From NCBI GenBank assembly GCA_965243495.1, contig CBDEUZ010000007.1, positions 154,450 to 218,449 of the forward strand: 64,000 bases of DNA, given 5' to 3'. Source of the DNA: Dehalococcoidia bacterium. GTDB taxonomy: Bacteria; Chloroflexota; Dehalococcoidia; UBA6926. Within the stretch, counting starts at the first letter, position 1. Each line of letters starts with the position of its first letter. Of this stretch, positions 3,076 through 49,165 are shown piece by piece. Under the pieces are notes generated by a model, which saw nothing but the letters and a program-made list of their open reading frames with translations, was not told the DNA's origin and did no database searches. The position numbers and the translations under genes were made by a program.

Positions 3076-3136
3076 ATGCGCAGTAGTATTGTCAGAGAGC
3101 AGCACGACTGCATTTCGAACCAATAGTGGAGGAACT

Positions 3137-7640: not shown

Positions 7641-7754
7641 CTCACTGACCCATCAACACAGCTCGCGAACCCCAGAATCCACACATCAGTTACGCCGGAA
7701 CGCGGCGGACCAACTGATTCCTAAACCAAAGCCGGATCGCGAACTCCAAAAAAC

Positions 7755-12466: not shown

Positions 12467-12498
12467 GCGGGGCGGGTCAATGACCCGCCCCGCCTTTG
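12467..12498 (+). terminator. Rho-independent terminator after the dienelactone hydrolase gene
   Basis: Perfect GC-rich palindrome GGCGGGGCGGGTCA / TGACCCGCCCCGCC followed by TTTG. Confidence 0.6.
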
Positions 12499-16031: not shown

Positions 16032-16035
16032 CCCC

Positions 16036-21117: not shown

Positions 21118-21165
21118 CCCTACTGTCATTCTGAGCGCAGCGAAGAATCTAAAGACTCATTGCCC
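21118..21165 (+). repeat. Single module C copy (gtcattctgagcgcagcgaagaatctaaagactcattg)
   Basis: Exact family C consensus between guaA and purD. Confidence 0.8.
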
Positions 21166-21199: not shown

Positions 21200-23077
21200 A
21201 TGTTAAAAACAATCCTGCTGCGCGTGACCCTCATGGCGCTTGCCGTCGTGTTCATGCTCATCGGCGTCGTCACCGCCCTTTTCCCGCGACCCGTCATCGA
21301 ACTCCTGGATCTCGGGCAGGTAAATGTCATCCTCCTCGGGATGTGGGGCGCTATGCTCGTTCTGCTCGGCGTCGGCGCATTCCTTGCAAACCGTGACCCC
21401 ATACGACACATCCTTTGGCTGCGGCTCACAATTGGATTCCTCTTTGGCATCGCGCTCTACGCCGGACTCGTGTACTGGGGCGGCGGCATCTCCCGGGACA
21501 CGGCAATCGTCCTAGCCGTCATCGGCATCGTCCCCGGCGTCGGGTTGCTTATCCTCTTCCCGCGCTCCCCGCGTTTCGTTTCCACCCGTGTTCGCTCCCC
21601 CGACGGTGTGCTCTTCACGGACGCGGACGACGGCGGCCTCTTCGTGCGCCGGAGCGGCGGCAGGTTCAACCCCTATGTCATCCGCCTCCCTCGCGAGCCC
21701 GCCATGCCGGACACGCATCACCGCCTCCACCCGACTACGGTCACAAACCCCTCCCGCGTCATGGTCGTCGGCGGCGGCGCGCGAGAACACGCCATCGCCG
21801 TCAAACTCCGGCAGAGCGCCGGACTCGAAGAACTCTACATGGCCCCAGGCAACGGCGGCACGGCATCGATCGCCGAGAATCTCCCCATATCAGCCACCGA
21901 CACCGAAGCCATCGTGCAGGCGGCACAGGAACGAAACGTCGAGCTTGTCATCATCGGCCCCGAAGCTCCGCTGGCCCTCGGCCTCGGCGACGCCGTCCGT
22001 GAGGCCGGTATCCTCTGCCTCGGCCCCTCACAAGAGGCGGCGCGCATTGAGTGGAGCAAGTCTTTCGCCAAGCAGGTCATGGACGACGCCGGAGTTCCCA
22101 CCGCCGCATGGACGAAATTTGACAACTACTCACAGGCCACGGAGTACGTCCGCGCGCACCCCGCTCCCCACGTCATCAAGGCGGACGGCCTCACAGCCGG
22201 AAAGGGCGTTGCCGTCTGCGAAACGGAACAGGATGCCGTCACATTCCTGCACCACGTCATGCGACTCCGCGACTTCGGCGAGTCAGGAGATTCCGTGGTG
22301 ATCGAGGAGACACTGTCGGGCGTCGAACTCTCCGTCTTTGCGTTCTGCGACGGCGAGCAGATGCTGCTCGTTCCCCCCGCCTGCGACTACAAGCGCATCT
22401 ACGACGACGATGAAGGTCCCAACACCGGCGGCATGGGATCATATAGCCCGCCGGAGTTCGTCACGGACAAACTCATGGCGGACATCCGTGACACCATCAT
22501 CCGCCCCGTCCTGCGCCGCATGGTTGAACTCGGCACGCCTTACAGCGGCATCCTTTACGCCGGACTCATGCTCACAGACGATGGCCCCAAGGTCATTGAA
22601 TTCAACTCCCGCATGGGCGACCCCGAGGCTCAGGTCGTCCTGCCCCGTATCACGTCCGATTTCCTGCAGCTCGCCGCCGCAACGGCCGCAGGCAAACTTG
22701 AAGACGTGCATCTTGAGTGGACGCCCCAGCCCGCCGTCGGCATCGCCATCGCTTCCGAGGGCTACCCCGGCGACTACCCAACCGGCCTGGAAATCACCGG
22801 ACTCAACACCCTTGACTACGATGCAATTGCCTTCCATGCCGGCACCCGCCTCGAACCCGCCCCTTCCGCTCACCCTGAGCCTGTCGAAGGGCCCAAACTC
22901 GTAACCGCCGGAGGCCGTGTCCTCACCATCACCGCGCTCGGCGACACGATGGAGCAGGCACGCGAGAAAGCCTACGCGAACGCCGCCCGCGTCCAGTTCC
23001 AGGGCGCGCACTACCGCAAAGACATCGCCCTCCGCGCCGTACCCGCTAAGCCCACCGAAGAACACCCTTCACCCTGA
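21200..23077 (+). CDS. purD: Phosphoribosylamine--glycine ligase with in-frame N-terminal 4-TM membrane extension
   Basis: Residues from MVVGGGAREHAIAV (ATG 21761) to the end are a complete PurD (438 aa). Upstream, the same frame is open back to ATG 21200 and encodes about 120 aa of clear TM helices with coding-like GC3. There is no stop between the two parts. A family B repeat fragment is embedded at 22855-22895 (..AHPEPVEG..). Confidence 0.8.
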   Translation: MLKTILLRVTLMALAVVFMLIGVVTALFPRPVIELLDLGQVNVILLGMWGAMLVLLGVGAFLANRDPIRHILWLRLTIGFLFGIALYAGLVYWGGGISRDTAIVLAVIGIVPGVGLLILFPRSPRFVSTRVRSPDGVLFTDADDGGLFVRRSGGRFNPYVIRLPREPAMPDTHHRLHPTTVTNPSRVMVVGGGAREHAIAVKLRQSAGLEELYMAPGNGGTASIAENLPISATDTEAIVQAAQERNVELVIIGPEAPLALGLGDAVREAGILCLGPSQEAARIEWSKSFAKQVMDDAGVPTAAWTKFDNYSQATEYVRAHPAPHVIKADGLTAGKGVAVCETEQDAVTFLHHVMRLRDFGESGDSVVIEETLSGVELSVFAFCDGEQMLLVPPACDYKRIYDDDEGPNTGGMGSYSPPEFVTDKLMADIRDTIIRPVLRRMVELGTPYSGILYAGLMLTDDGPKVIEFNSRMGDPEAQVVLPRITSDFLQLAAATAAGKLEDVHLEWTPQPAVGIAIASEGYPGDYPTGLEITGLNTLDYDAIAFHAGTRLEPAPSAHPEPVEGPKLVTAGGRVLTITALGDTMEQAREKAYANAARVQFQGAHYRKDIALRAVPAKPTEEHPSP

Positions 23078-23079
23078 AC

Positions 23080-23345
23080 CCATTTGAAAAGTCCCCGTTC
23101 GCCCTGAGCGTAGTCGAAGGGGGCTCTCGAACGGGGAGCCGCTCCCACTCTTACTTCGTCATTCCCGCGAAAGCGGGAATCCAGTACGGCGCGCAGCGCC
23201 GTCTAACTTGTCATTCCGAGCGTAGCCGAGGAATCTAAAGCCTCAATTGACCGCCAAAGCCGGAACGCGGCGGACAAACGCCACAAACCAACCTCACCTG
23301 AACGCGAACTTTGGCCGTAGGCACTGCCTACCCCACCCCCACTAA
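23080..23345. repeat. Mosaic repeat array (B, A, C, E)
   Basis: B at 23095-23140, A at 23155-23205, C at 23208-23250, E (..cgcgaactttggccgtaggcactgcctaccc) at 23255-23335. Confidence 0.85.
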
Positions 23346-23388
23346 TGCCATAATCTCTGTAGGTGCATCACCAAAGGGGGTAACACGA

Positions 23389-23850
23389 ATGGCCGCAATC
23401 GTTGGCATTCTCATGGGCAGCCGCTCCGATGAAGAGCTCGTTCAACAGACGCAGAAAGTCCTTGAGGACCTCGGCATCGAGTACGAGACAAACGTCCACT
23501 CCGCGCACCGCACCCCGGACAAGGTCGCCGAATACGTCCGAACCGCCCAGGATCGCGGCATCGATGTCCTCATCGGCGTCGCAGGCGCAGCAGCGCACCT
23601 ACCGGGTGTTATGTCTGCCTACACCACCCTGCCCGTCATCGGCGTCCCCGCCACCGGCAGCGCCCTCAACGGCCTCGACGCCCTCTACTCCATCGTCCAG
23701 ATGCCGCCCGGCGTCCCCGTCGCATCCGTCGCCGTCGGCTCAATGGGCGCGCGCAACGCCGCCTACCTAGCCGCGTCCATCCTCGCCCTCAAACATCCTC
23801 ACGTCCGTGAAAGCTATGAAGCGTTCCGCCGAAAGCAGTCAGAGGGCTAA
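23389..23850 (+). CDS. purE: 5-(carboxyamino)imidazole ribonucleotide mutase
   Basis: Classic PurE sequence (IVGILMGSRSD..HRTP..AGAAAHLPGVMSAYTTLPVIGVP). RBS AAGGGGG before ATG 23389. Confidence 0.9.
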   Translation: MAAIVGILMGSRSDEELVQQTQKVLEDLGIEYETNVHSAHRTPDKVAEYVRTAQDRGIDVLIGVAGAAAHLPGVMSAYTTLPVIGVPATGSALNGLDALYSIVQMPPGVPVASVAVGSMGARNAAYLAASILALKHPHVRESYEAFRRKQSEG

Positions 23851-23928
23851 ATCAACAGTCGGACCCGAAGAAGGAACAACCCAAGAGTCCCTCTCCCACT
23901 GAGAGAGGGTTAGGGTGAGGGCAACAGA

Positions 23929-25218
23929 ATGATCGACCGCTACGCCCGGGACGCCATGAAGGCCGTCTGGCAGGACCAATTCAAGTTCGAAACATGGCTT
24001 GAGGTGGAGCTTGCCGTCTGCAGGGCGTGGGCGGAGCATGGCGAGATTCCTGCCGAGGACATTCCCCTGCTGGAACGCGCCACTTTTGACATGCCCCACT
24101 GGCAAGAGGCGTTCAAGACGACGCGCCATGACGTGACCGCGTTTCTCTCCTCCATCTCCCGCGATCTCGGCCCGGAGAGCCGCCACATCCACAAGGGCCT
24201 CACGTCCAACGACGTGTGGGACACGGCCACCGCGCTGCAGCTCCGCGCCGCCGCCAACATCCTCCTTGAGGACATCGACAAGCTCGAAGAAGCCATCACC
24301 CGCCGCGCCGTCGAGCACAAGAACACCCTGATGATGGGGCGAACACACGGCGTCCACGCGGAGCCCACCACCCTTGGCCTCAAACTTGCCCTCTGGGTGG
24401 AAGAGACGCGCCGCATGAAGCAGCGACTTGAGCAGGCCGCGCGCGGTGTCAGCGTCGGCAAGTTCTCGGGCGCAGTCGGCACCCACGCCACCCTGCCGCC
24501 CGAGGTCGAGAAAACGGCCTGCCGATTCCTGGGGTTGGAAGTTGAAAATATCTCGAGCCAGATCGTGCCGCGTGATCGCCACGCCGAGTTCGTCACAGCG
24601 CTCGCCCTCTGTGCCGCCTCCCTTGAGAAATTCGCCACGGAGATCCGCAGCCTCCAGCGCACGGAGGTGCTTGAGCTGGAAGAACCGTTCCATGCAGGTC
24701 AGACCGGCTCATCCGCCATGCCCCACAAGCGCAACCCCGAGTTGTCCGAGCGCATCTGCGGTCTTGCCCGGCTCATCCGCGGCCATGCTGTCACCGCTCT
24801 CGAGAACGTCGCTCTCTGGCATGAGCGGGATATCTCCCACTCCTCCGCCGAGCGCATCATCCTGCCCGACGCCACCATGGCCCTCGACTACATCCTCGAC
24901 CTCGCCACCTATGTCATCGGCGGCATGGTTGTGTACCCCGACAACATGATGGCGAACGTAGAAAAGACACATGGCCTCGTCTTTTCCCAGCGCGTCATGC
25001 TCGCACTCATCGACAAAGGTCTCACCCGTGACGAGGCCTACAAGGTCACCCAGACCGCCTCCATGGAGAGTTGGAACACCGGCCAGGACTTCCGCGACCT
25101 CCTCCGCCAGAACGCGGATGTCGCCCAACACCTCACCCCGAACGAACTCGAATCCCTCTTCGACTACACCTACTACACCCGCTACGTAGACCAGTCCTTC
25201 GAGAGGATTGGGCTGTAA
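23929..25218 (+). CDS. purB: adenylosuccinate lyase
   Basis: Full-length PurB (MIDRYARDAMKAVWQDQFKFETWLEVELAV..., fumarate-lyase signature GSSAMPHKRNP). Confidence 0.9.
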   Translation: MIDRYARDAMKAVWQDQFKFETWLEVELAVCRAWAEHGEIPAEDIPLLERATFDMPHWQEAFKTTRHDVTAFLSSISRDLGPESRHIHKGLTSNDVWDTATALQLRAAANILLEDIDKLEEAITRRAVEHKNTLMMGRTHGVHAEPTTLGLKLALWVEETRRMKQRLEQAARGVSVGKFSGAVGTHATLPPEVEKTACRFLGLEVENISSQIVPRDRHAEFVTALALCAASLEKFATEIRSLQRTEVLELEEPFHAGQTGSSAMPHKRNPELSERICGLARLIRGHAVTALENVALWHERDISHSSAERIILPDATMALDYILDLATYVIGGMVVYPDNMMANVEKTHGLVFSQRVMLALIDKGLTRDEAYKVTQTASMESWNTGQDFRDLLRQNADVAQHLTPNELESLFDYTYYTRYVDQSFERIGL

Positions 25219-25323
25219 TTGCCCATGCCCACCACCCGCATGTCATTCTGAGCGTAGCGAAGAATCCAAAGACTCGCCCTGCATGTCGACGGGACTCTCA
25301 CACGAACGCCAGGAGCGCTGACC

Positions 25324-25506
25324 ATGCCCGCCAGAGAGGATAATGGTGGCCACGCGCCCACCCGTGGTGAAAAACGCCAGGACAAAAGGCGCCGAGCCCG
25401 CAAGATGGGCGTCAGCGGCAAGAGCTACGTCAACGCCGTCCGCAACGCCATGCTCAAACGCAAAGCCGAGATCGAAGTCCGCGACCGTGAGAATAAATCC
25501 CAATAG
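25324..25506 (+). CDS. Hypothetical small basic protein (60 aa)
   Basis: ORF in a short lower-GC patch after a module C repeat; product is Lys/Arg-rich. Weak evidence and no recognisable family. Confidence 0.25.
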   Translation: MPAREDNGGHAPTRGEKRQDKRRRARKMGVSGKSYVNAVRNAMLKRKAEIEVRDRENKSQ

Positions 25507-25600
25507 GACAATCTATTATTCTGTTGAAACCCGCAAACCATCAATTGCCGTAGAAAAACAATAACTCTGTAGATATTCCCAATACAGAAACAATAAAGAA

Positions 25601-25640
25601 GCGCCCCCGCCGTACGGCGGGGGCGCTTTCGTCGTTCTTG
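25601..25640. terminator. Bidirectional rho-independent terminator
   Basis: GCGCCCCCGCCG-TA-CGGCGGGGGCGC hairpin with T-rich runs on both sides (TTTCGTCGTTCTT plus strand; TTCTTTATTGTTTCTG minus strand). It lies at the 3' end of the minus-strand ABC ATPase pair. Confidence 0.6.
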
Positions 25641-25653
25641 TCAGGGTAGTACT

Positions 25654-26676
25654 TTACACCCGGTGGCACGCCACCCAGTGGTCGCCGCCCATATCCCGGA
25701 ACTCCGGATCCTCCTCATTGCACACATCGATCGCGATGGGGCAGCGGGTGTGGAACCGGCAGCCGGACGGCGGGCGGATCGGGCTCGGCACGTCGCCTGT
25801 AAGCACGATGCGCTCTCGCTGACGCTCAACGATTGGGTCCGGAATCGGCACCGCTGACATCAGCGCGCGCGTGTACGGGTGAAGCGGGTTCTCATACAGC
25901 TCCTCGCGCGTCGCAATCTCCACAATCTTGCCGAGGTACATCACGGCGACCCGGTCGCTGATGTGCCGGACGACGGAAAGATCGTGCGCGATGAAGATGT
26001 ATGTCAGGTCGAACTGCTCCTGCAACTCTTCCAGAAGGTTGATGACCTGCGCCTGGATGGACACGTCGAGCGCCGACACCGGCTCGTCGCAGATGATCAG
26101 GCTTGGTCGCACCGCCAAAGCGCGTGCGATGCCGATGCGCTGCCGCTGGCCGCCGGAGAACTCGTGGGGATAGCGATCGCGCATGTACGGGTTCAGTCCC
26201 ACAACGCGCAGCAGTTCCTCCACCTGGTCCACGTAGTCACCGCGGCTACTCGACATATTGTGGATGCGGATCGGCTCTCCAATGATGGAACCGGCGGTCA
26301 TGCGTGGATTGAGGGAGCTGTACGGATCCTGGAAGATCATCTGCAGTCGACGGCGCATGCGGCGCATCCGACCCGGGCTCAGCTTGGCGAGGTCAGTTCC
26401 TTCGAAAATGACCTCGCCCTGTGTGATGTTGTAGACCTGCATGATGCAGCGCCCCACGGTGGTCTTGCCGCAGCCGGACTCACCCACCACGCCCAGCGTC
26501 TCGCCCTTGCGGACGAAGAAGCTGATGTCATCAACCGCCTTCACGTCGGCGACGTGGCGCGGAATGATTCCCCGGGAATTCACCGGAAAATACATCTTCA
26601 GATTGTTGACTTGAAGAAGAGTATCGTCGGCCAAATTGGTTGCTTCAGCCGAGGCTGCGCTGTCTGCCTGCGTCAT
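25654..26676 (-). CDS. ABC transporter ATP-binding protein (Opp/Dpp F-type)
   Basis: Walker [10 protein letters not shown], signature LSGGQRQR, Walker B, C-terminal oligopeptide-type extension. ATG at 26676 (RBS AGGGAG) overlaps the upstream stop (TAATG). Confidence 0.85.
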
Positions 26677-27698
26677 TAGTTGCTCCCTGCCTGCGCGCCG
26701 GACACCTGCGTCACGTCCACCCAGCACGCCTTGTGTTGATCTGTCGTTCCCTCCACCAGTTCGAAGGGCGGGTATTCGGCGCAACGATCGATTGCGAACG
26801 GACACCGTGGGCGGAAAGAGCATCCACCCGGAAGATTCATGAGATCAGGGGGCATCCCCTCAATCGGATCAAGCTTCGCCCTGCGCGGTTCATCCAGCCG
26901 CGGAACCGAAGAGAGCAGCCCGATCGTATACGGATGCCGCGGGTCCTTGAAGATTTTCTCAGCCGGACCGGACTCGACGATCTTTCCGGCGTACATCACA
27001 TTGATCCAGTGCGCGTAGCGCGCCACCACGCCAAGGTTGTGCGTGATGATGATGACAGCCGTACCCAACTCTTCATTCAGCCGCTGCATCAACTCAAGAA
27101 TCTGCGCCTGAATCGTCACGTCCAGCGCCGTTGTCGGCTCGTCCGCAATCAGCAGGCGTGGCTCGCAGCTCAGCCCCATCGCGATCATCACACGCTGCCT
27201 CATCCCGCCGCTGAACTGGTGCGGGTAGTCGCTCAGGCGATTTCGCCCGTCGGGGATGCCGACCATTTCCAGCAGTTCACCGGCGCGGCTTGAAGCCTGC
27301 TCCCGGTTCATCCCCAAGTGCGTCTCAAGCGCCTCTGTCAACTGGCGGCCGATGGTGAGAACGGGATTGAGAGAGGTCATCGGCTCCTGGAAAATCATGG
27401 CGATCTTCGCGCCGCGCACCTCAAGAACACGCTCCTCGCTCATCTTCAGCATGTCCTCGCCGTCAAGAAGTGCCTCGCCGGCCTCAATGCGCCCCCCGGG
27501 CGGGGGGATCAGCCTCATCACGGAGAGCGCAGTCACGCTCTTGCCGGAGCCACTCTCACCCACGACGCCGACGATCTCGCCCGCATGCACGTCGTAGCTA
27601 ACGCCATCAACGGCCTTGACGATGCCGTCTGTCGTATAAAACCTCGTTACCAGGTCCTTGATTTCCAGAACCTTGGTCTGAGACGTCTCGGTTGCCAC
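26676..27698 (-). CDS. ABC transporter ATP-binding protein (Opp/Dpp D-type)
   Basis: Walker [10 protein letters not shown], signature [11 protein letters not shown] start at 27698 is preceded by GAGGAGG; the longest ORF reaches 27749. Confidence 0.85.
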
Positions 27699-27795
27699 AG
27701 AGCCTCCTCGCTGCACTCCCCCAGGGCACGCATGCCCGCTGCTTACCAACCTTGACCGAACAATCCGGTCGCCACACCTGCCGGTTTCGTTCTCG

Positions 27796-27877
27796 TGGGG
27801 AAGAGGAGACTCGAACTCCTACGCCTTGCGGCACATGATCCTAAATCATGCTCGTCTGCCAGTTCCGACACTTCCCC
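27796..27877 (-). tRNA. tRNA-Leu (anticodon TAG), type II with long variable arm
   Basis: Reverse complement folds as GGGGAAG / D-arm / CATGA-TTTAGGA-TCATG / long variable arm TGCCGCAAGGCGT / AGGAG-TTCGAGT-CTCCT / CTTCCCC + A. Confidence 0.8.
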
Positions 27878-27892
27878 CATTTATTCACCGTG

Positions 27893-27966
<74 letters not shown>

Positions 27967-28149
27967 GCAGTGAATATCTATTGTATGCGTGTTTCGGTCG
28001 GATGACGACAGTACGCCCCGAGTTTCCTCTCCTCCCCATACGTCCATAAGAACGATGCCGTAGCGCCTTCCAAGCGTTACGACAATGCGCGGACGGTAGC
28101 ATACCCCCCGTTCACCGTCAAGCAGCGCACCCACATCCCCACCATTAAA

Positions 28150-28520
28150 GAACCTCTCACCCTAACCCCGTCGAAGGACTTTCGTCATTCCCGCGAAAGC
28201 GGGAATCCAGTGCGGCGCGCAGCGCCGTCTAACTTGTCATTCAGAGCGCAGCGAAGAATCTAAGGAGACTCATCTGGCAAGCATGCCGGAACGCGGCTAG
28301 CCGACTGCAGAGGCAAGACAACCCGGAACGCGAACCTTGGCCGTAGGCACTGCCTACCACGTTCGCCCTGAGCCTGTCGAAGGGGGCTCCCGAACGGGGA
28401 CCTAGTCCCGCCTCCCATGTCATTCCGAGCGCAGTCGAGGAATCCAAAGCCTCACCTGTGCCTTCCCCCTCATTCCGAGCGCAGCCGCGTAATCCGAAAT
28501 CGGATTCCTCAGCCCAAACC
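28150..28520. repeat. Mosaic repeat array (A, C, E, B, C, C-variant)
   Basis: A at 28185-28232, C at 28238-28275, E at 28280-28350, B at 28360-28410, C at 28420-28455. A variant C at 28462-28500 has a different internal hairpin (aatccgaaatcggatt). Confidence 0.85.
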
Positions 28521-28552
28521 GTCACGCCGTATGTATTATCATTTCCCTGCTC

Positions 28553-29509
28553 ATGCTCTCCATATGGTGGGACGGCCTTACCCTCAATGCCCTGGCGCTT
28601 CTTCTGGCTGTTGGGTTGGATCGCGTTTTGCCGGAGCCCCCTGCGAGAATCCACCCGGTCGTTTGGATAGGACGCACCATCGCCGCCCTGGAACGCGCGG
28701 CGCCCCGGAGGCCGACGCCTGCATTCATTTATGGGTGCATCATCGTCATCACGGTGACCGTAATTTCGACAGCTTTAGCATGGCTCGCGGTGATTGCGCT
28801 CGCCTCCATACACCCACTGGTTTACGTGACGGGCAGCGCAATAATCCTGCGCACCACCTTTACGGTAAGGGGTCTCTCCTCCGCGGCAAGGCAGACCCGG
28901 GAGGCCCTGCGAGAGGGTCGACTGGAACCGGCGCAGGCCAGCCTGCGTAACTTGGTCAGTCGCGACCCGACAACCCTGACCCCGCCACTGGTGGCTGCAT
29001 CCGCCATAGAGTCCGTGGCTGAGAACACCACGGACAGCTTCGTGGGTCCCTGGCTGGCATTCGCAGTGTTCGGGGTGCCGGGCGCAGTGGCCTATAGAGC
29101 CGTAAACACGCTGGACAGCATGCTGGGATATCGCGGCAGGTATGAGTACCTTGGCAAGGCCTCCGCTCGTCTGGACGACGCCCTCAACTTTGTACCGGCG
29201 CGGCTGAGCGCCCTCTTCCTATTGCTCGGTGGGGCGCTGGGTCGCCTGCCCGTGCGCCGCGCGTGGTTGATCATGCTGAGAGACCGTCAAAGCACCGCCA
29301 GTCCCAACGCAGGGTGGACTATGAGCGTAATGGCAGGGCTCCTGGGAGTACGGCTGGAGAAGCCGGAGCACTACGTCCTCGGCGAGGGCATGCGAGAGCC
29401 AAACACCGAGGACATTGGCGCGGCAATCAGACTCGCTGAGTGGACTGCGATACTGGGAATATTAGCGGCGCTGGGCTTGCTGACGATGAGGCACGCCATC
29501 ATGGGCTAG
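28553..29509 (+). CDS. cbiB: adenosylcobinamide-phosphate synthase CbiB/CobD
   Basis: 318-aa membrane protein with characteristic N-terminus (LLLAVGLDRVLPEPPARIHPVVWIGRTI) and full-length similarity to CobD/CbiB. Confidence 0.85.
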   Translation: MLSIWWDGLTLNALALLLAVGLDRVLPEPPARIHPVVWIGRTIAALERAAPRRPTPAFIYGCIIVITVTVISTALAWLAVIALASIHPLVYVTGSAIILRTTFTVRGLSSAARQTREALREGRLEPAQASLRNLVSRDPTTLTPPLVAASAIESVAENTTDSFVGPWLAFAVFGVPGAVAYRAVNTLDSMLGYRGRYEYLGKASARLDDALNFVPARLSALFLLLGGALGRLPVRRAWLIMLRDRQSTASPNAGWTMSVMAGLLGVRLEKPEHYVLGEGMREPNTEDIGAAIRLAEWTAILGILAALGLLTMRHAIMG

Positions 29510-29516
29510 GGCGAGG

Positions 29517-30584
29517 TTGATGGGGTTGAAAATGATTCATGGGGGTTTGGACGAAGGAGAGTTGCGCTCTCTGGGCCTACGGCCGGAGCGGGTGCTCGAC
29601 TTTAGCGCCAACATCAACCCCTTGGGCCCGTCCCTCGGCGTTAGCCGCGCCGCAGCTCAGGCGAACGTGTCTGCCTACCCGGACCGCCATAGCTTGGCCT
29701 TGCGTGAGGCTCTTGCGGAAAGGCTGGGGGTTGGTATCGACAACCTCATCATCGGTAACGGCTCCACGGAGCTCATCCATCTTCTGGCCCGCGCTTATCT
29801 TGGACCTGGAGTCACGTCCCTGATCTTTGCTCCGACGTTCGGGGAATACGAAACTGCCGCAGCACTGGCCGGAGCCAACGTATGCCACTTTCACGCCGAT
29901 GAGTCTCAGGACTTTCGATGGCCGCTTAATGAAGCGGTAAAGACAATCGAACGGACGCGACCCGCCCTGGTCTTCCTCTGTAATCCCAACAATCCAACAG
30001 GCGTCTATCTGGATCGCAGCGATGTCGAGAAGATTCATGGAGCTTTGAGAGGGGACTCGTTGCTGGTGTTGGACGACGCCTATAGCTCCCTGGCAGATCG
30101 CGCATGGGATCCCATCCCACTGCTCCGCAAAGGCAACATCGCGATATTGCGTTCCATGACAAAGGATCACGCGCTTGCAGGCGTAAGGCTCGGGTACATG
30201 GTCGCCGAGCCTCATGTCATCTCAAGCGTGCGTCGACTTCAACCGGCCTGGAGCGTCAACGCCGTCGCTCAGGCGGCGGGCATTGCCGCGTTGAATGATC
30301 AGCAGCATGTTGCCGCGGCGAGAAAAATCATCGCGGAGGCGAAAGAATATCTTTCGGGTCAGCTTGCAGCATTGGGGATTCCGGTAACCGTCTCTGCCGC
30401 CAATTTCGTGCTTGCAAAAGTGGGGGCGGCATCGGAAGTGCGCCAGGAGCTGCTGCGCCGACACATCGCCGTGCGTGACTGCGCATCCTTCGGTCTTCCC
30501 GAACACATACGCATCGCCGTCCGGCGGCGCGAGGACTGCGACAGGCTCATAGAATCGCTGCGAGAGGTGTTGGGGCATGAGTAG
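29517..30584 (+). CDS. PLP-dependent aminotransferase-fold enzyme, HisC/CobD family (candidate L-threonine-O-3-phosphate decarboxylase)
   Basis: HisC-like class II aminotransferase fold (..LDFSANINPLGPS.., conserved Lys region ..LRSMTKDHALAGVRLGY..). Its position directly after cbiB suggests the CobD decarboxylase role. Confidence 0.7.
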   Translation: MMGLKMIHGGLDEGELRSLGLRPERVLDFSANINPLGPSLGVSRAAAQANVSAYPDRHSLALREALAERLGVGIDNLIIGNGSTELIHLLARAYLGPGVTSLIFAPTFGEYETAAALAGANVCHFHADESQDFRWPLNEAVKTIERTRPALVFLCNPNNPTGVYLDRSDVEKIHGALRGDSLLVLDDAYSSLADRAWDPIPLLRKGNIAILRSMTKDHALAGVRLGYMVAEPHVISSVRRLQPAWSVNAVAQAAGIAALNDQQHVAAARKIIAEAKEYLSGQLAALGIPVTVSAANFVLAKVGAASEVRQELLRRHIAVRDCASFGLPEHIRIAVRRREDCDRLIESLREVLGHE

Positions 30585-31479
30585 TCGCCAACGTGCCGGA
30601 GGCATCGGAGTAGCCTCAGCTCCCGCAACCTGCGGCGAGTTGGCACAAGGAATCCTGGACGGAACGCCGGTCATGGCAACCTGCCCCATCAACATGTTCT
30701 CAACAGTCACCGTCGACCTGGTGAAAGGCTCGGGTCGCGTTCATGGCTCGGCCAACTCTCGTAAAGCCTGCCGCGCCGTGGAGCTGACGCTGGCGCTCAT
30801 GGAACGGACTGACGTGGATGCCCGTCTGAACATTGAGAGCTGCATCCCGCGCAAGAAGGGAATGGCAAGCAGCACCGCGGACATCATTGCAGCCATCGCA
30901 GCGACGGGTGCTGCGCTCGACACTGACATATCGGTCTCCCAGCAAGCCGAGTTGGCCCTTTCCATCGAACCGAGCGACGGGACAATGCTGCCGGGTATTG
31001 CGCTCTTTGATTACAGGCATGGAAGCATCGCGCGATCCCTGGGGCACCCGCCTGGCATGCGAATCCTGGTGTTGGAGTTCGAGGGAGACCTTGACACTGA
31101 ATCATTCAATGCAGTGAACCGGGAGGCTGAACTCCGGGGGCAGTCGCCGCGTCTCCGCGACGCGCTTGAGTTGATCACAGAGGGGTTGGAGTCATGCGAC
31201 GCCGAGGCCGTTGGCCGCGGCGCGACACTGAGCGCCCTGACATACCAGGCGGTGCTCCCCAAGCCGCAACTGCCCACAGTGCTCTCACTTGCACAGGACG
31301 CCGGGGCAGTAGGTGTGAACGTCGCCCATAGCGGTACCGTCATCGGGCTGCTCTTCAGAGACGACTCGGATCGGACAGCATGGGCAGCAACTGAAGCCTC
31401 GAAGCGCCTCCCCAACCTCACAGCGATACACAACTGCAAGCTCATAGGCGGCGGTGTACAACAAACCGTCCCGCGCTAG
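30577..31479 (+). CDS. GHMP kinase family protein (candidate L-threonine kinase, PduX/BluE-like)
   Basis: GHMP motif KGMASSTADIIAAIAA. Overlaps the preceding gene by 8 nt. The functional call rests on its position after cbiB and the decarboxylase. Confidence 0.6.
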   Translation: MSSRQRAGGIGVASAPATCGELAQGILDGTPVMATCPINMFSTVTVDLVKGSGRVHGSANSRKACRAVELTLALMERTDVDARLNIESCIPRKKGMASSTADIIAAIAATGAALDTDISVSQQAELALSIEPSDGTMLPGIALFDYRHGSIARSLGHPPGMRILVLEFEGDLDTESFNAVNREAELRGQSPRLRDALELITEGLESCDAEAVGRGATLSALTYQAVLPKPQLPTVLSLAQDAGAVGVNVAHSGTVIGLLFRDDSDRTAWAATEASKRLPNLTAIHNCKLIGGGVQQTVPR

Positions 31480-31484
31480 GCACG

Positions 31485-32095
31485 CTCTCCCCCATCGTCA
31501 TTCCCGCGAAAGCATGCCCCGTACTCTGATACGGGGCGGCAATGGATTCTCGCCCGCAGGACGGCCTCTTCCGTCATTCCGAGCGCAGTCGAGAAATCCA
31601 AAGGCTCAATAGACCGCCAAAGCGGGAACGCGGTGTGCAACATACACAGGTCATTCAGAGTTCGACCGCGAACCTTGGCTGTAGGCACTGCCTACCCGAG
31701 AGCCGTAGCGCAGCTACCCGTTCGCCCTGAGCCTGTCGAAGGGGGCTCCCGAACGGGGATCTAGCCCCCCTCGTCATTCCCGCTAAAGCATGTCCCGTAC
31801 TTGATACGGGGCGGGAATCCAGTGCGGTCCGTAGGGCAGCCTCTTCTGTCATTCCGAGCGCAGTCGAGGAATCCAAAGACTCATATGGCAAGCATGCTGG
31901 AACGCGGGTGCCAGACTGCACTGGCCAGACGACCCGGAACGCGAACTAAAAGCCGTAGCGCAGCTACCCGTTCGCCCTGAGCCTGTCGAAGGGGGATCCC
32001 GAACGGGGGTCTAGCCCCTCTTCGTCATTCCCGCGAAAGCGGGAATCCAGTGCGGCGCGCAGCGCCGCCCAACCTCACCCCTTTGCTATCATCAC
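31485..32095. repeat. Mosaic repeat array, about 610 nt, the longest in the window (A-variants with nested hairpin, C, E, F, B, A ...)
   Basis: A-variant at 31497-31545 and 31785-31850 carries a second hairpin (atg[c/t]cccgtact[c]tgatacgggg) inserted in the A loop. C at 31562-31600 and 31845-31885, E at 31620-31700, B at 31720-31765 and 31965-32010, A at 32025-32080. Confidence 0.85.
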
Positions 32096-32099
32096 CAAT

Positions 32100-33371
32100 A
32101 TGAAAAAGACGGTCAGCGATATCGACGTGTCCGGCGCGCGATGCCTCGTGCGCGTCGATTTCAACGTTCCGTTCGAACCCGGCACAACCACAATCTCCGA
32201 CGACTCCCGCATCCGCGCCGCCCTACCAACCATCAACTACCTTCGTGAGCGGGGCGCGCGCGTCATCCTCGCAACCCATGTGGGCAGACCAAAGGGCATC
32301 GACGACGGCTTGCGCGTAGCGCCCATGGCCGCACGGCTCTCCGAACTCCTCTCATCGCCCGTCACTGTCGCGCCCGACTCCATCGGCGAGGAAACCGAAA
32401 AGCTCGCCGCCGCGCTCGGCCCCGGTGATGTCCTCTTCCTTGAAAACACGAGGTTCCACCCCGAAGAGGAGAAGAACGCTCCTGATCACTCAGCCGCCCT
32501 CGCCCGTCTTGCGGACTTCTATGTGAACGATGCCTTTGGGTCCGCCCACCGCGCCCACGCCTCCACGGAGGGCGTCGCCCATCTCCTGCCCGCCGTCGCG
32601 GGGTTCCTCCTTGATAAGGAGATCCGCATGTTGGGCGGCATCCTTGAATCGCCCCGCCGTCCGCTGGCAACGCTCATGGGCGGCGCAAAGGTCGGCGACA
32701 AGATGGCCGTCATGGAGCGACTCATCGAGAGCTCGGACATGCTCATCGTCGGCGGTGGCATGGCCGCCGCGTTCCTGGAAGCCCGTGGAATGCGAACCGG
32801 TAAGAGCCTGCTCGAAGCGGACGGCCCGCAGATGGCAGGGCGAATCGAAAGCGCCGCAAGGGCCCGAGGCATCCAACTGCTGATTCCGACGGACGTGATC
32901 GTGGCAACCGAACTCTCCGCCGATGCCCCCGTGTCCGCCGTAAGCAGCGACGCCATCCCTGCAGATGGAATGCTCCTGGACATCGGCCCCGAGACGCGCG
33001 ATACCTACACGCGCGCCTTGCGACTCTGCCAGACAGTACTTTGGAACGGCCCGATGGGTGTATTCGAGTACGACCAATTCGCCGGAGGCACACGCGCTAT
33101 CGCCGAATGCCTCGCCCAACACGCCGGCGCTCCCACCTCCCTTCGTCATTCCCGCGAAAGCGGGAATCCAGTGCGGCGCGCAGCGCCGCCACCTTCTCAC
33201 GCCCCACACGGCGCAACCGTCGTCGTTGGCGGCGGCTCGACGGCTGAGGCCGTCGACGCCCTCGGATATGCCGACGCCATGACCCATGTGTCCACCGGCG
33301 GCGGCGCGGCCCTCGAATTCCTTGAAGGCCGTGTCCTCCCCGGCATCGCCGCCCTCCAGGACATGGACTGA
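32100..33371 (+). CDS. pgk: phosphoglycerate kinase carrying an in-frame repeat-element insertion
   Basis: Full-length PGK (..VRVDFNVP.., ..VWNGPMGVFE.., ..GGGSTAEAV..STGGGAALEFLEG..). Between ..ECLAQHAGA and TVVVGGG, 27 extra residues (PTSLRHSRESGNPVRRAAPPPSHAPHG) are encoded by an exact copy of repeat module A at 33143-33189. Confidence 0.9.
   Translation: MKKTVSDIDVSGARCLVRVDFNVPFEPGTTTISDDSRIRAALPTINYLRERGARVILATHVGRPKGIDDGLRVAPMAARLSELLSSPVTVAPDSIGEETEKLAAALGPGDVLFLENTRFHPEEEKNAPDHSAALARLADFYVNDAFGSAHRAHASTEGVAHLLPAVAGFLLDKEIRMLGGILESPRRPLATLMGGAKVGDKMAVMERLIESSDMLIVGGGMAAAFLEARGMRTGKSLLEADGPQMAGRIESAARARGIQLLIPTDVIVATELSADAPVSAVSSDAIPADGMLLDIGPETRDTYTRALRLCQTVLWNGPMGVFEYDQFAGGTRAIAECLAQHAGAPTSLRHSRESGNPVRRAAPPPSHAPHGATVVVGGGSTAEAVDALGYADAMTHVSTGGGAALEFLEGRVLPGIAALQDMD
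33143..33189 (+). repeat. Module A copy inside the pgk coding frame
   Basis: cgtcattcccgcgaaagcgggaatccagtgcggcgcgcagcgccgcc is identical to the intergenic copy at 32035-32080. Total inserted length keeps the frame open. Confidence 0.9.
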
Positions 33372-34140
33372 ACTTTTCTCTGCCATTCCAAGCGCAACTA
33401 AAGGGTCCCCGTTCGGGAGCCCCCTCGTCATTCCCGCGAAAGCGGGAATCCAGTGCGGCGCGTAGCGCCGCCATTAATCCCCTCTCCCTGAGGGGGAGGG
33501 TTAGGGTGGGGGTGACTCCCCCGTCATTCCGAGCGCAGCCGAGGAATCCAAAGACTCCACAGACCGCCAAAACCGGAACGCGGCACACCAAACCCAACGA
33601 CGACCCTCCCCGGCATCGCCGCCCTCCAGGACGCGGACTAGTCCCCGTTCGCCCTGAGCCTGTCGAAGGGGGCTCCCGAACGGGGAACCAACATCCCCTC
33701 CCCCTCGTCATTCCCGCGAAAGCGGGAATCCAGTGCGGCGCGCTGCGCCGCCATTAATCCCCTCTCCCTCAGGGAGAGGGTTAGGGTGAGGGGGGCTGTA
33801 ATTCCGAGCGCCCTTACTGTCATTCCGAGCGCAGTCGAGGAATCCAAAGCCTCAATAGACCGCCAGAGCAGGAACGCGCATCCGAACCCAACGGCCGCCC
33901 GCACCGGAACGTGAACTTTGGCCGTAGCGCAGCTACCGAGAGCCGTAACGCAGTTACCCCGTTCGCCCTGAGCTTGTCGAAGGGGGCTCCCGAACGGGGA
34001 CCTAGCTCCCCTTCGTCATTCCGGCGCAGGCCGGAATCCACCCCGTGGCCCGTAGGGCCACAACACTCTCCTGCAAACCTTTGTGCTATTCTCAAATTCG
34101 GTGTACAGCGGCATCAAGAGTACAAAGGAATAATTTGAGG
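33372..34140. repeat. Mosaic repeat array (A, D, C, E, B, A, D, C, E, F, B, A-variant)
   Basis: Two successive composite blocks A-D-C-E at about 33420-33600 and 33705-33900, then F+B at 33911-34005 and an A-variant (cgtcattccggcgcaggccggaatcc) at 34015-34045. The D copies contain (G3N3)3G3 tracts. Confidence 0.85.
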
Positions 34141-35196
34141 ATGGAAACCTTTGACGAAGTAATACGGGCAGCGCTGGAGGCAGCCCGGCAGCGTGAAGGC
34201 TATATCGGCCCGCTTGAGGACTTTACGATTGCCCTTGCTAGCAGAGACTGGCAGGAGAGAGACCCCGTTATTGAAGGAATACTCACCGACATCAGGGCTG
34301 GCTCACAAGAACCTCTGACACTATGGCATGCACAGCATCATGGTGTTGAGGACACGATTCTCCAGAAGTGGAACGAACCCCTGCGACTTCTTGATCTCCT
34401 GATTGTCCTTGCTGGGCAATTCGGCACAGATTTCTACAGGGAACGCATAGCAACAGTGGAAGACGGTGGTGAGCGTTTACTGCTCACGGTGCTCACTGAG
34501 CTACACGCCAGAGCTTGCCAAATATCCTCCGCTATACATCTGCTGCTGCGTTCAGGATATGCGGATGACGCTCACGCGCGATGGCGCACACTGCACGAGA
34601 TTTCAGTAATAGCCAATTTTGTGAAGGACGGCGGGGCATCACTTGCTGAAAGATACCAAGAGCATGGAACCATACAGCGGTGCAAGGAATTACGTGCATT
34701 CCGTGAACGTAGTCAGTTATTCGGGAACGAGCCGGAATGGACTGTTGCTGACCATTGGTTCGAGGAACGCTATGAATTGCTTATACAAAAGTATGGCTCG
34801 TCCTTCAAGGAGGACTACGGCTGGGCTGCGGATGCACTCGGCAAGAAGAAGCCAACTTTCAGAGACATTGAGAATAACGTGAAGATAGCCGATACAGTGC
34901 CTATGGCGCTGATGCGCGCGCAATACAGGATGGCAAGCGCAAATGTTCATGCATCCGCACACGGCACTCAATTTCGGTTAGGACTGGGTAAGCATAGTAG
35001 CACTGGAATCCTGTTTGGCCCTAGTATTCAAGGTCTAGGTGACCCAGGGTTTGCGACTGCAAATGCTCTTTGTGAAACGGCACTTACGCTTCTTCAGACA
35101 AGATCGAATGAAGACGATGTCGTGCGCATCTCGATACTGACGAATCTCACCGAGACAACTTCGAACGTATTCCTCACAACGCCGGACGATGATTAG
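34141..35196 (+). CDS. Hypothetical protein (351 aa), lower-GC, first gene of the two-gene island
   Basis: RBS GAGG before ATG 34141. No recognisable catalytic family from sequence. It contains an R-x4-H stretch (RWRTLHE), weakly reminiscent of HEPN-type motifs. GC is about 52% against about 65% in flanking DNA. Confidence 0.55.
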   Translation: METFDEVIRAALEAARQREGYIGPLEDFTIALASRDWQERDPVIEGILTDIRAGSQEPLTLWHAQHHGVEDTILQKWNEPLRLLDLLIVLAGQFGTDFYRERIATVEDGGERLLLTVLTELHARACQISSAIHLLLRSGYADDAHARWRTLHEISVIANFVKDGGASLAERYQEHGTIQRCKELRAFRERSQLFGNEPEWTVADHWFEERYELLIQKYGSSFKEDYGWAADALGKKKPTFRDIENNVKIADTVPMALMRAQYRMASANVHASAHGTQFRLGLGKHSSTGILFGPSIQGLGDPGFATANALCETALTLLQTRSNEDDVVRISILTNLTETTSNVFLTTPDDD

Positions 35197-35240
35197 GCTG
35201 GTAACCGTCCTGAACTTGTCCATGAAAGAGGCAGCACCCT

Positions 35241-36884
35241 ATGACGACCGACTGGAAAAACAAACTCTACTTCGGCGATAACCTCCCCATCATGCGGGAG
35301 CACATCCCGGACGAGTCCGTCGATCTCATCTACCTCGATCCGCCCTTCAACTCCAACGCCACCTACAACGTCCTCTTCCGCGAGCACGATTCCTCGGAGT
35401 CCGCCGCCCAGATTCAGGCATTCGACGATACCTGGCACTGGAGCACGGACGCCGAATGGCATTACCAGCAGGTCGTCACCACCGGCCCGCGAAAACTCGC
35501 GGACATGCTTGGGGCCATGCGCACATTCCTCGGCCAGAACGACATGATGGCCTACCTCACCATGATGGCCCCGCGCATGGTGGAACTGCACCGCGTCCTC
35601 AAGCCCACCGGCAGCATCTACCTCCATTGCGACCCCACCGCCAGCCACTACCTCAAGCTCCTCATGGACGCCGTGTTCGGGCCGACAAGGTTCAGGAACG
35701 AAATCACGTGGAAACGCTCTCATCCCAAGGGATTAGCATTCACTCGCTTCGCATCAAACCATGACGTGATTTTGGTGTACGGCTCCACCAGCGATGCCAC
35801 CTGGAATGCAATGTATACGGAGAACCCTCGCGCCCACGAGCAATACAACCTCATTGAAGAAGGCACAGGACGTAGATACCAGTTGACCAGTCTATTGAAT
35901 CCAAATCCAGATCGCCCAAACCTGACATACGAATTCAAGGGCGTAACGAGAGTATGGCGATGGACAAAAGAACGCATGGAACAAGCTGATAAAGACGGGC
36001 TAATCGTTGTTCCGCGTGAGGGACAAGGGGTTCCGAGACTGAAGAGGTATCTTGATAAACAGGAAGGGATTCCAGTAGGCGACACTTGGGATGACATCCC
36101 AATTGCGGCTGGCAAAGAGCGCCTCGGCTATCCCACCCAGAAGCCCGAGGCCCTGCTTGAACGCATCATCTCCGCCTCCAGCAACGAGGGCGATGTCATC
36201 CTCGACCCCTTCTGCGGCTGCGGCACCGCCGTCGCCGTCGCGGAACGCCTGAACCGCAAGTGGATCGGCATCGACGTCACCCATCTCGCCATCTCCCTCA
36301 TGCGCAGCCGCCTGCGTGACTCGTTCGGCGATGACCTGTCCGACTATGAGGTCGTCGGCTCCCCCGCGGACGCGGAGAGCGCCCGCGCACTGTCGCTTGA
36401 GGGCGGCAACACCGGCCGATACCAGTTCGAATACTGGGCGCTCGGCCTGGTTGAGGCCCGCCCTGCCCGCGACATGAAGAGGGGCGCGGACGCCGGTATC
36501 GACGGCTACATCAACTTCTTTGACGACAACTCCGGCAAAGCCAAGTCCGTCATCGTCCAGGTCAAGAGCGGTAACGTGGGCCGCAACGTCATCGCCACCC
36601 TGAAGGGCGACATGGAACGCGAAAACGCCGAAATGTCTCTGCTGATCACCTTGCGTCCGCCCACCAAACCGATGCTTGATGAGGCTGCGTCCGCCGGATT
36701 CTACACGCCGGAGGCCTACCCGGACCGACAATTTCCCCGCGTCCAGATCGCCACCATTGAGGACATCCTCAACGGCAACGGCCCCGCGATACCCCAACTC
36801 GGCCTCTCCCAACCCCCGACCTTCCGCCGCGCCCCCCGCCGCCGCCGAACAGACTCCACATCCCCCCGCATGAACATCGGCTAG
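35241..36884 (+). CDS. Beta-class N6-adenine/N4-cytosine DNA methyltransferase fused to a C-terminal Mrr-like (PD-(D/E)xK) nuclease-type domain
   Basis: Motif IV LIYLDPPFNS near the N-terminus, motif I/X ..GYPTQKPEALLERII..VILDPFCGCGTAV.. after a central target-recognition region (beta-class order). The C-terminal approximately 190 aa carry ..DAGIDGYINFF..SVIVQVKSGNVGRNVIATLKG..LLITL.., matching the Mrr catalytic-domain pattern. The central TRD segment (about 35700-36110) is about 48% GC while both flanks are about 65%. Confidence 0.8.
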   Translation: MTTDWKNKLYFGDNLPIMREHIPDESVDLIYLDPPFNSNATYNVLFREHDSSESAAQIQAFDDTWHWSTDAEWHYQQVVTTGPRKLADMLGAMRTFLGQNDMMAYLTMMAPRMVELHRVLKPTGSIYLHCDPTASHYLKLLMDAVFGPTRFRNEITWKRSHPKGLAFTRFASNHDVILVYGSTSDATWNAMYTENPRAHEQYNLIEEGTGRRYQLTSLLNPNPDRPNLTYEFKGVTRVWRWTKERMEQADKDGLIVVPREGQGVPRLKRYLDKQEGIPVGDTWDDIPIAAGKERLGYPTQKPEALLERIISASSNEGDVILDPFCGCGTAVAVAERLNRKWIGIDVTHLAISLMRSRLRDSFGDDLSDYEVVGSPADAESARALSLEGGNTGRYQFEYWALGLVEARPARDMKRGADAGIDGYINFFDDNSGKAKSVIVQVKSGNVGRNVIATLKGDMERENAEMSLLITLRPPTKPMLDEAASAGFYTPEAYPDRQFPRVQIATIEDILNGNGPAIPQLGLSQPPTFRRAPRRRRTDSTSPRMNIG

Positions 36885-37277
36885 CCCTGCCCACCCTGAG
36901 CCTGTCGAAAGGCCTTCCACTTCCCGTTCGCCCTGAGCCTGTCGAAGGGGGCTCCCGAACGGGTACCTAGCCCCCTCGTCATTCCCGCGAAAGCGGGAAT
37001 CCAGTGCGGCGCGCAGCGCCGCCTCTCATGTCATTCCGAGCACAGCCGAGGAATCTAAAGACTCCACAGACCGCCAAAGCCGGAACGCGACACACCAGCC
37101 TCACGCACAAATCGACGCTGATCGCGAGCTATGGTTGTAGGCACTGCCTACCCGCCCAAAGCCGGAACGCGGCACACCAAACCCACGAACCGTTCTCGCC
37201 GGAACGTGAACTTTGGCCGTAGCGCAGCTACCCGAGAGCCGTAACGCAGTTACCCCCGCTATACTGTCCACACGCAT
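36885..37277. repeat. Mosaic repeat array (B-partial, B, A, C, E, E, F)
   Basis: B fragments at 36895-36965, A at 36975-37020, C at 37025-37065, E at 37065-37200, F (gaactttggccgtagcgcagctacccgagagccgtaacgcagttacccc) at 37198-37255. The F copy is a direct repeat of 33905-33961 on the other side of the island. Confidence 0.85.
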
Positions 37278-43588: not shown

Positions 43589-43745
43589 CCACCAGCCGTA
43601 GAAAACGCGGTTGGGGTGGATCAGAACCGATAATGCAGCGTTTACGGCGACCTCCCAACAAAAACCAAAGCCCGCGAACGGGCGGATTGAATAAGTATAG
43701 CCCCGCTACGCTATCGGGCGGGCATTTCCTATGTAACCAGTCTGA

Positions 43746-49043: not shown

Positions 49044-49165
49044 GCCCCATGCTAGGCGCGGGCGTATCCCAAACACAAACATAAGGTGGCAGTCAGAAGG
49101 ATTGCTACAATAGGTTTCAGCGCGCAGTTCACTCGTCAAACCAGATACAGAGGAGACCCAGCCAA

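Follow-up and report, generated by a model that had tools for sequence, protein, structure and literature searches.

The intergenic spacers of a 64,000-nt stretch of DNA from an uncultured Dehalococcoidia bacterium (phylum Chloroflexota; contig CBDEUZ010000007.1), hereafter called the window, carry mosaic arrays of short repeats whose anchoring module, termed A, exactly reproduces the 28-nt Neisseria Transformation Sequence (NTS). Module A is at the same time a dRS3 element and a member of the CGTC-1 class of repetitive extragenic palindromic (REP) sequences. The arrays represent a known repeat system in a new host rather than a new kind of element. What is new is the phylum, the ordered and one-directional composite unit into which A is built, and the occurrence of in-frame copies inside genes. 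We consider it probable that these arrays, which resemble the mosaic elements of Neisseria intergenic regions (NIMEs), are anchored by NTS copies that act at the DNA level via a nuclease of the Ssn family, and that the arrays recombine with one another. Coordinates given below are positions in the window, and labels of the form L076 denote other genome or metagenome stretches that carry the repeats.

Identity of module A and its companions

Module A (CGTCATTCCCGCGAAAGCGGGAATCCAG) is made up of the parts CGTC-ATTCCCGC-GAAA-GCGGGAAT-CCAG. The window contains eight exact matches to the 28-nt NTS consensus CGTCATTCCCGCGMAVGCGGGAATCYRG, all of which lie on the + strand. The degenerate SRM search pattern, which was defined together with the NTS (Chenal et al. 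2025, Nat Commun 16:2388; PMC11893778), is matched nine times, again only on the + strand, compared with a mean of 0.62 matches among 100 random windows. The same module agrees with two other published descriptions. It reads ATTCCC-GCGAAAGC-GGGAAT, which corresponds to the definition ATTCCC-N8-GGGAAT of the dRS3 repeats used for NIMEs (Bentley et al. 2007; PMC1797815). It also carries every hallmark of the CGTC-1 REPs (Di Nocera, De Gregorio, Rocco 2013; PMC3733652), the family represented in Neisseria by the dRS3 repeat: a CGTC tag is followed by an 8-bp stem starting with AT, a loop of 4 nt, and a CCA tail. The tag variants TGTC and CCTC are also present in the window. Moreover, an identical run of 26 nt is located upstream of pilE in Neisseria gonorrhoeae.

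An initial annotation, prepared from the letters of this DNA alone, had regarded the module sequences as distinctive. This view cannot be maintained, since A does not differ from a Neisseria repeat and unrelated lineages also contain the cores of modules B, C, and F. Indeed, representative genomes in GTDB contain an exact 29-mer of module A in more than 120 stretches, from well over a dozen phyla. Its carriers include Dehalococcoidia, Xanthomonadales-type Gammaproteobacteria, Burkholderiales, sphingomonads, Nitrospirae, and Nitrospinota, as well as Acidobacteria, Planctomycetota, Omnitrophota, Actinomycetota, Ignavibacteria, Myxococcales, and others. A literature search on the core sequences of B and C returned nothing relevant.

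We distinguish eight module types (A, A2, B, C/C2, D, E, F, and G), in agreement with the previous estimate of at least five or six. Module A2 is a hairpin (GCGGCGC-GCA-GCGCCGC) that directly follows A, whereas B and F have the sequences CCCGTTCGCCCTGAGCCTGTCGAAGGGGGCTCCCGAACGGGG and CCCTCTCCC...GGGAGAGGG, respectively. Modules C and C2 conform to (C/T)GTCATTC(C/T)GAGCGCAG..GA(G/A)GAATC and are CGTC- or TGTC-tagged elements related to A; the stem ATTCC...GGAAT is common to A and C, as had been noted. Modules D and E are short hairpins of the form GTAG...CTAC. The core of A occurs 11 times at three or fewer mismatches, that of C/C2 occurs 12 times, and that of B occurs 13 times, each against an expectation of 0.00 derived from 100 shuffles. 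A generic scan for a tag followed by a hairpin proved too noisy and was not used.

The modules had all been described as palindromic, a description that is weak for several of them. Module A together with A2 is predicted to fold into two strong hairpins (-19.1 kcal/mol, z = -4.8), and B into the nested hairpin that had been proposed for it (z = -1.9), whereas the predicted folds of C, C2, D, E, and F do not surpass those of shuffled sequence. We also find the reported variants of A that carry an extra hairpin. These A' elements (31496-31545 and 31772-31830) have the hairpin CCCGTA-CTTGA-TACGGG inserted within the A stem just after GAAAGC, which is the same position at which truncated half elements repeatedly break off. 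Such half elements (CGTCATTCC plus ~10 nt) lie at 2712, 12576, and 12681, in each case immediately before a complete element or module B. Hairpins with the B core were also observed in a gammaproteobacterial metagenome-assembled genome (MAG; L046, 2475-5650), where six of them (CCCTGAGCCTGTCGAAGGG, with a stem of the GTTCGCCC/GGGTGAAC type) occur in both orientations beside a Cas1-like open reading frame (ORF), in a region that is partly N-masked.

Layout and turnover of the arrays

Twelve spacers between 0.9 and 37.3 kb, including the one at 31485-32095, share this single set of modules, and repeats were found in every spacer for which they had originally been listed. Their density is lower than the claim that nearly every spacer longer than about 100 nt is occupied: the repeats are present in 9 of the 13 spacers longer than 100 nt and are absent from the window beyond 37.3 kb, such that ~33 tagged copies fall within 37 kb and none within the next 27 kb. 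BLAST comparisons among the spacers cover 42-81% of the repeat-bearing ones. The exception is the 435-nt spacer between purB and oppF, which holds one C2 copy and is 8% covered.

The modules had further been thought to combine in differing order and orientation. In contrast, all 36 cores of A, B, and C lie on the + strand, and spacer-versus-spacer matches are direct in 399 cases and inverted in 16. The intergenic xGTCATTC tags of the first 39 kb give the same picture, with ~33 on the + strand and one on the - strand, the latter belonging to a C-type copy at 3037-3076 that is the only inverted element of the window. The modules succeed one another in the cyclic order B-A-A2-(F)-C-G-D-E, which forms a unit of ~250-315 nt wherein some modules are optional. 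Every array is cyclically colinear with a 314-nt reference unit (B-A-A2-F-C-G-D'-E-E; 33644-33957, + strand).

The reference unit is situated inside the largest array, which lies in the spacer between pgk and a DUF5677 gene (33372-34044, + strand, as are all elements that follow in this section). Two exact copies of the NTS lie within this array (33426-33453 and 33706-33733), together with an SRM variant (34014-34041). The spacer between a GHMP-kinase gene and pgk (31485-32095) contains ~2.2 composite units. Its first part comprises A' (31496-31545; the 5' half of NTS plus the inserted hairpin), C (31572-31607), G (31612-31632), D (31667-31696), and E (31698-31718). These are followed by B (31717-31758), A' (31772-31830), and C (31847-31882), and then by E (31948-31968), B (31967-32008), an exact NTS (32023-32050), and an A2 hairpin (32049-32069). 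The array between a methylase/Mrr gene and gpmI (36885-37277) has the composition B'-B-A-A2-C-G-D-G-E-E with an exact NTS at 36977-37004, and the purD/purE spacer (23080-23345) carries B-A-A2-C-G-D with an exact NTS at 23157-23184. In a convergent spacer, the array A-A2-B-A-A2-B (7346-7650) begins at the stop codon of an M20 peptidase gene. The glyoxalase/SDR spacer (2706-3076) has a half-A joined to B, followed by C, E, B', and C2', and it also holds the inverted C-type copy (3037-3076, - strand). The array at 12497-12850 extends from a dienelactone hydrolase gene to a low-GC block and includes an exact NTS (12596-12623) in addition to two of the half elements. The array at 28150-28520 occupies the divergent spacer between tRNA-Lys (- strand) and cobD (+ strand), where an exact NTS (28183-28210) is followed by A2, C2, D, B, C, and C'. 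Elements also occur singly: an NTS-like copy with the tail ...AATCT is located 10 nt after tRNA-Pro (938-963), C2 copies are located after guaA (21124-21158) and 24 nt past the purB stop codon (25241-25275), and an F-type hairpin is located in the purE/purB spacer (23888-23921).

A comparison with a Dehalococcoidia MAG (L076; CBDBNN010000001.1), which is syntenic with positions 21379-33362 of the window at 86-91% identity, reveals how these arrays vary. L076 lacks the 256-nt array that follows purD and the C2 element that follows purB. It also lacks a block of three genes (CobD/CbiB, class I/II aminotransferase, and GHMP kinase; 28553-31479) along with the two arrays that bracket this block in the window; at the same place, one array of ~260 nt with another module set joins the tRNAs to pgk. 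A second bracketed segment is a two-gene island of low GC content (0.54; 34045-36884), which lies between pgk and gpmI-tpiA with an array at either end. It encodes DUF5677 and a fusion of an N6/N4 DNA methylase with an Mrr-like restriction nuclease domain, and it looks like an acquired defence or restriction-modification cassette. Both the cob block and DUF5677 deviate from the local GC skew. Directly after the array at 12497-12850, two large overlapping ORFs (1040 and 689 aa; 12909-17538) have no Pfam match and a GC content of 0.53 compared with ~0.62 around them, and this segment is possibly a further acquired block.

Within the largest array, the final ~33 nt of pgk with a stop codon occur a second time as a relic (33609-33641) that duplicates 33340-33371. 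The relic starts with ACCCTCCCC, like the L076 allele, whereas the gene in the window has GTCCTCCCC, and this difference may be the footprint of recombination with a related allele. The arrays change quickly between relatives and bracket accessory DNA, which fits the earlier idea that they are substrates for recombination. We propose that recombination or duplication between direct repeats makes them expand, contract, and exchange, which would account for their position around gene blocks that one relative has and another lacks.

The modules are also found on other contigs of related Dehalococcoidia MAGs (L076, L103, and L014/L117) and are thus not confined to the window. A lineage-specific 29-mer spanning the A-A2 junction was absent from the JGI metagenomes, and a 35-nt A-A2 pattern and a 34-nt B pattern were absent from IMG/VR. 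A protein search for more loci with an array-encoded peptide gave no match.

Two further copies are located within genes. In pgk, an NTS and its A2 hairpin (33138-33200) are inserted in frame and add ~28 residues (PTSLRHSRESGNPVRRAAPPPSHAPHG) between residues 340 and 375, as judged against solved Pgk structures; L076 has the same insertion. In purD, a hairpin with the B core (CCGCTCACCCTGAGCCTGTCGAAGGG; 22860-22891) forms a 27-nt in-frame insertion in the GARS_C domain that is missing from L076. Single modules can insert alone, and those that fall within genes can survive when they are in frame; we envisage that this is how such copies would be retained. At its 5' end (21200-21750), the purD ORF extends ~180 codons beyond what the GARS domains need. 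This stretch is conserved in L076 and may contain a separate small gene or an N-terminal extension.

Outside the arrays, the - strand encodes five tandem paralogues of MFS transporters (42305-49187), wherein the internal DNA repeats 43781-44520 and 45082-45821 are 72-73% identical.

Proposed DNA-level action and a candidate partner enzyme

The published partner of the NTS is SsnA, a 94-aa GIY-YIG nuclease that binds its target solely as single-stranded DNA (ssDNA) and only on the top strand, that cuts a few nucleotides upstream, and that has no action on RNA or double-stranded DNA (PMC11893778). Strand-specific binding and cleavage of ssDNA have been shown for the Neisseria and Wolbachia enzymes, and SsnA of Neisseria meningitidis lowers transformation by DNA in which NTS copies surround a gene (PMC11893778). 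In a search for a transposase adjoining module A, we clustered all ORFs of 120 genome loci. The sole recurrent neighbor is a small GIY-YIG ORF, which is present in five loci, with a truncated sixth copy detected by tblastn. At these loci, the ORF is bracketed on both sides by A in inverted orientation. Ssn-like ORFs bracketed by NTS are present in 6 of the 120 genome loci and in 15 of 120 metagenome loci. The clustering independently reproduces the published association of Ssn with NTS. One stretch, L200 (453-1035), has five NTS-like elements in a 33-nt head-to-tail tandem adjoining an ssn-like ORF, and a single copy in inverted orientation flanks the opposite side of that gene.

The mosaic had initially been compared to the bacterial interspersed mosaic elements (BIMEs) and other REPs or to SMAG elements, and a cognate REP-associated tyrosine transposase (RAYT) had been suggested. 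The class was correctly recognized, in that the arrays are mosaics of intergenic hairpins, but the closest relatives are the dRS3, NIME, and NTS elements of Neisseria. The arrays could still be classical REPs or BIMEs that are mobilized by a RAYT (an IS200/IS605-like Y1 transposase), or miniature inverted-repeat transposable elements (MITEs) of a resident insertion sequence (IS), given that D and E contain GTAG (GTAGGCACTGCCTAC and GTAGCGCAGCTAC) and that the mosaic clustering recalls BIMEs. This explanation appears highly improbable. No transposase, RAYT, or IS is encoded within the window, and the ORF clustering of the 120 loci revealed no recurrent IS or RAYT family next to A. The GTAG motifs of D and E are base-paired within their stems and leave no unpaired tag, whereas the tag of the main modules is CGTC, which has no known link to a RAYT (PMC3733652). 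In addition, the elements have neither terminal inverted repeats nor short target duplications, the sole duplication being the 33-nt copy of the end of pgk. Membership among RAYT-dependent REPs or BIMEs was rejected for the paired GTAG and the missing Y1 transposase, and membership among MITEs was rejected for the missing terminal repeats and transposase. The RAYT is probably the wrong candidate for the cognate enzyme; the nuclease with which the motif is linked is the small GIY-YIG enzyme Ssn.

A different alternative places the function at the RNA level, wherein the hairpins would be cotranscribed with the upstream gene to serve as 3' stabilizers or as terminators that lack a U-tract; the initial annotation had suggested stabilization and termination. 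The location of the arrays is in accordance with this possibility. Among the 12 repeat-bearing spacers, 11 have their repeats immediately downstream of a + strand gene and in the sense orientation, often starting from the stop codon, and CGTC REPs elsewhere lie mostly between unidirectional and convergent genes (PMC3733652). The double hairpin of A and A2 is also very stable. However, none of the array hairpins is followed by a T-run, and a terminator scan yielded 11 sites compared with 13.8 expected, none of which is on an A, A2, or B hairpin. On these grounds, an identity as terminators was rejected. The genome does have a classical bidirectional intrinsic terminator that is unrelated to the repeat modules, namely a perfect GC-rich hairpin of 14 bp in the convergent purB/oppF spacer (25598-25629) that has T-runs on each strand. 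Other observations likewise disagree with a function in RNA. One array is located in a divergent spacer (28150-28520). In L103, two A-A2-B triplets are antisense in the ribD-ribE and dcd-SIMPL spacers of - strand operons (L117 is the same locus in a second genome). Shuffled sequence folds at least as well as modules C, D, and E do. In Rfam, three tRNAs were the only matches at the gathering threshold, and a search of 31400-34200 at E <= 1 yielded no relevant family. Finally, SsnA does not bind RNA (PMC11893778). We therefore consider an RNA-level function very doubtful. The missing T-runs, the array in the divergent spacer, the antisense arrays of L103, and the lack of an Rfam match fit a DNA-level role and the strand-specific ssDNA activity reported for Ssn.

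By analogy with the published work on Neisseria, the A elements would act on DNA as follows. When the strand carrying 5'-CGTC becomes single-stranded, an Ssn-family GIY-YIG nuclease would bind the hairpin and cut a few nucleotides upstream. Such trimming of ssDNA, for example of incoming DNA, may then shape recombination around the flanked genes.

Several observations weigh against this interpretation. We found no ssn gene, which would encode a single-domain GIY-YIG protein (cd10448) and is typically flanked by the motif, in the 64 kb of the window or across ~280 kb of loci from Chloroflexota, and, to our knowledge, natural transformation is not known in this lineage. The published NTS-type elements are mostly inverted pairs, whereas those of the window are all direct. 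Module A accounts for 9 of the ~70 module copies, and it alone agrees with the motif as published; the SRM pattern does not match C or C2, and no partner is known for B, D, E, F, or G. Lastly, the role in the exchange of gene blocks is based on one pairwise comparison, that of the window with L076.

The lack of an ssn gene in these stretches is also in keeping with a selfish or neutral satellite, in which a unit of ~300 nt was spread and homogenized by unequal recombination, replication slippage, and gene conversion, with no dedicated enzyme and no function involved. The NTS match would then be the relic of an Ssn system that has been lost. Arrays that are colinear partial copies of one unit and that vary in copy number between relatives are consistent with this explanation, and the half elements and the duplicated gene end suggest sloppy recombination. 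Other features are more difficult to reconcile with it. The eight NTS copies are identical over 28 nt, whereas their flanking modules are merely 60-90% alike, which suggests a constraint on A. In the SRM variant at 34014-34041, a compensatory change in the stem keeps the hairpin. Modules also insert singly away from the arrays, as seen in purD and pgk. On balance, we regard a satellite as unlikely, and a nuclease-dependent role of module A as the preferred interpretation.

If A is a target for a strand-specific nuclease, then its uniform orientation may be related to replication. The + strand of the window is C-rich for both + strand genes (mean skew -0.045) and - strand genes (-0.077), and the agreement between the two sets indicates that the skew is strand-wide. 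In composition, the + strand corresponds to a lagging strand by the usual rule. The strand bearing CGTC is the C-rich one in the window, L076, L014, L103, and L117, although these represent no more than three independent regions; L014 and L117 come from one genome and have opposite signs. The correspondence fails more widely, with ratios of 14:8 in Dehalococcoidia and 31:28 elsewhere and mixed results for metagenome clusters. A general replication-strand rule was set aside, and we treat the correspondence as a lead and not as a finding. One conceivable rationale is that the cleavable strand would be kept off the lagging-strand template, where it would be exposed as ssDNA.

The direct arrangement itself is clear in the window, where seven of the eight exact NTS copies have a tag of the same orientation within 130 nt, whereas 85 of 119 exact copies in other phyla have an inverted partner. 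Two apparent inverted partners in the window probably arose because the 8-nt pattern matches module F by chance. Direct NTS clusters are common in metagenomes (>120 stretches), and thus direct orientation alone is not unique to these arrays. Inverted pairs were also observed on Dehalococcoidia chromosomes, several of which (L030, L032, L059, L092, L099, L105, L109, L116, and L119) carry a conserved inverted NTS pair with a spacer of ~60 nt (gccgaagtcgttaatcacggttctgattctttcatcat). A left flank containing TTGACA is common to L092, L105, L109, L116, and L119. In three cases, the partner element carries the hairpin CCCCGTA-CTTGA-TACGGGG, as inserted in module A of the window.

A bolder proposal, which we consider quite unlikely, is that this Dehalococcoidia lineage has incorporated an NTS-type Ssn target into a cassette of ~300 nt, ordered, one-directional, and with several hairpins, wherein the cleavable strand would lie on the C-rich strand (the presumed leading-strand template) and would spare the cell's own replication forks, while the cassette would mark the borders of exchangeable blocks. 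If true, this would constitute a NIME-like, strand-aware system for gene-cassette exchange or ssDNA restriction outside Neisseria, and the companion modules B, C, D, and E might be targets of further single-strand-specific proteins.

Relation to known systems and implications

The arrays share with the NTS/SsnA system (PMC11893778) the consensus itself, the same oriented flanks (GTC upstream and C after the palindrome), and copies that cluster around genes in an NTS-gene-NTS arrangement. They differ in the Chloroflexota host, in the absence of ssn from the 64-kb window and the ~280 kb of Chloroflexota loci, and in the direct orientation of the copies within an ordered unit of several modules. 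In addition, in-frame copies reside in housekeeping genes here, whereas the NTS copies of N. meningitidis are rarely intragenic (2%). With NIMEs (PMC1797815), the arrays have in common that dRS3 copies are interleaved with other repeat families and flank variable genes, and that array length at syntenic sites varies between relatives. However, NIMEs were described as specific to Neisseria, and their RS elements comprise more than 100 families with dRS3 inverted repeats as borders (an alternation of successive oriented dRS3/NTS copies is inferred from one N. gonorrhoeae example, which shows an inverted pair), whereas here approximately eight modules follow one cyclic order in one orientation.

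In-frame intragenic copies are known among CGTC-1 REPs (PMC3733652). Head-to-head dimers dominate and head-to-tail dimers are negligible in that family, whereas true inverted partners are essentially absent here, and CGTC REPs have been reported in five phyla that do not include Chloroflexi (PMC3733652). The Rickettsia palindromic elements, of which RPE-4 and RPE-6 are CGTC REPs, likewise insert hairpins in frame into conserved genes and leave the protein intact, as in pgk and purD. In contrast, there are two intragenic copies in the 64 kb examined here, and the host is presumably free-living or a symbiont and not an obligate intracellular bacterium. The BIME/REP-RAYT elements of Escherichia coli and the SMAG elements of Stenotrophomonas also form mosaic clusters of short intergenic hairpins, but these have an unpaired GTAG tag, alternating orientation, and a Y1 transposase, none of which applies to the main modules of our arrays.

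A practical consequence concerns annotation, since the repeats yield spurious peptides (VIPAKAGIQ, RHSRESGNP, PFALSLSKG, and others) that pollute protein databases. For the biology of the repeats, a 28-nt motif once tied to the NIMEs of Neisseria is found to anchor mosaic arrays in one uncultured lineage of Dehalococcoidia. The occurrence of the exact 29-mer across well over a dozen phyla supports the view that the pairing of Ssn with NTS is an ancient or widely transferred module. This lineage provides a natural experiment, wherein the arrays are all direct, gene blocks have been gained or lost at ~90% identity, and hairpins are tolerated within pgk and purD.

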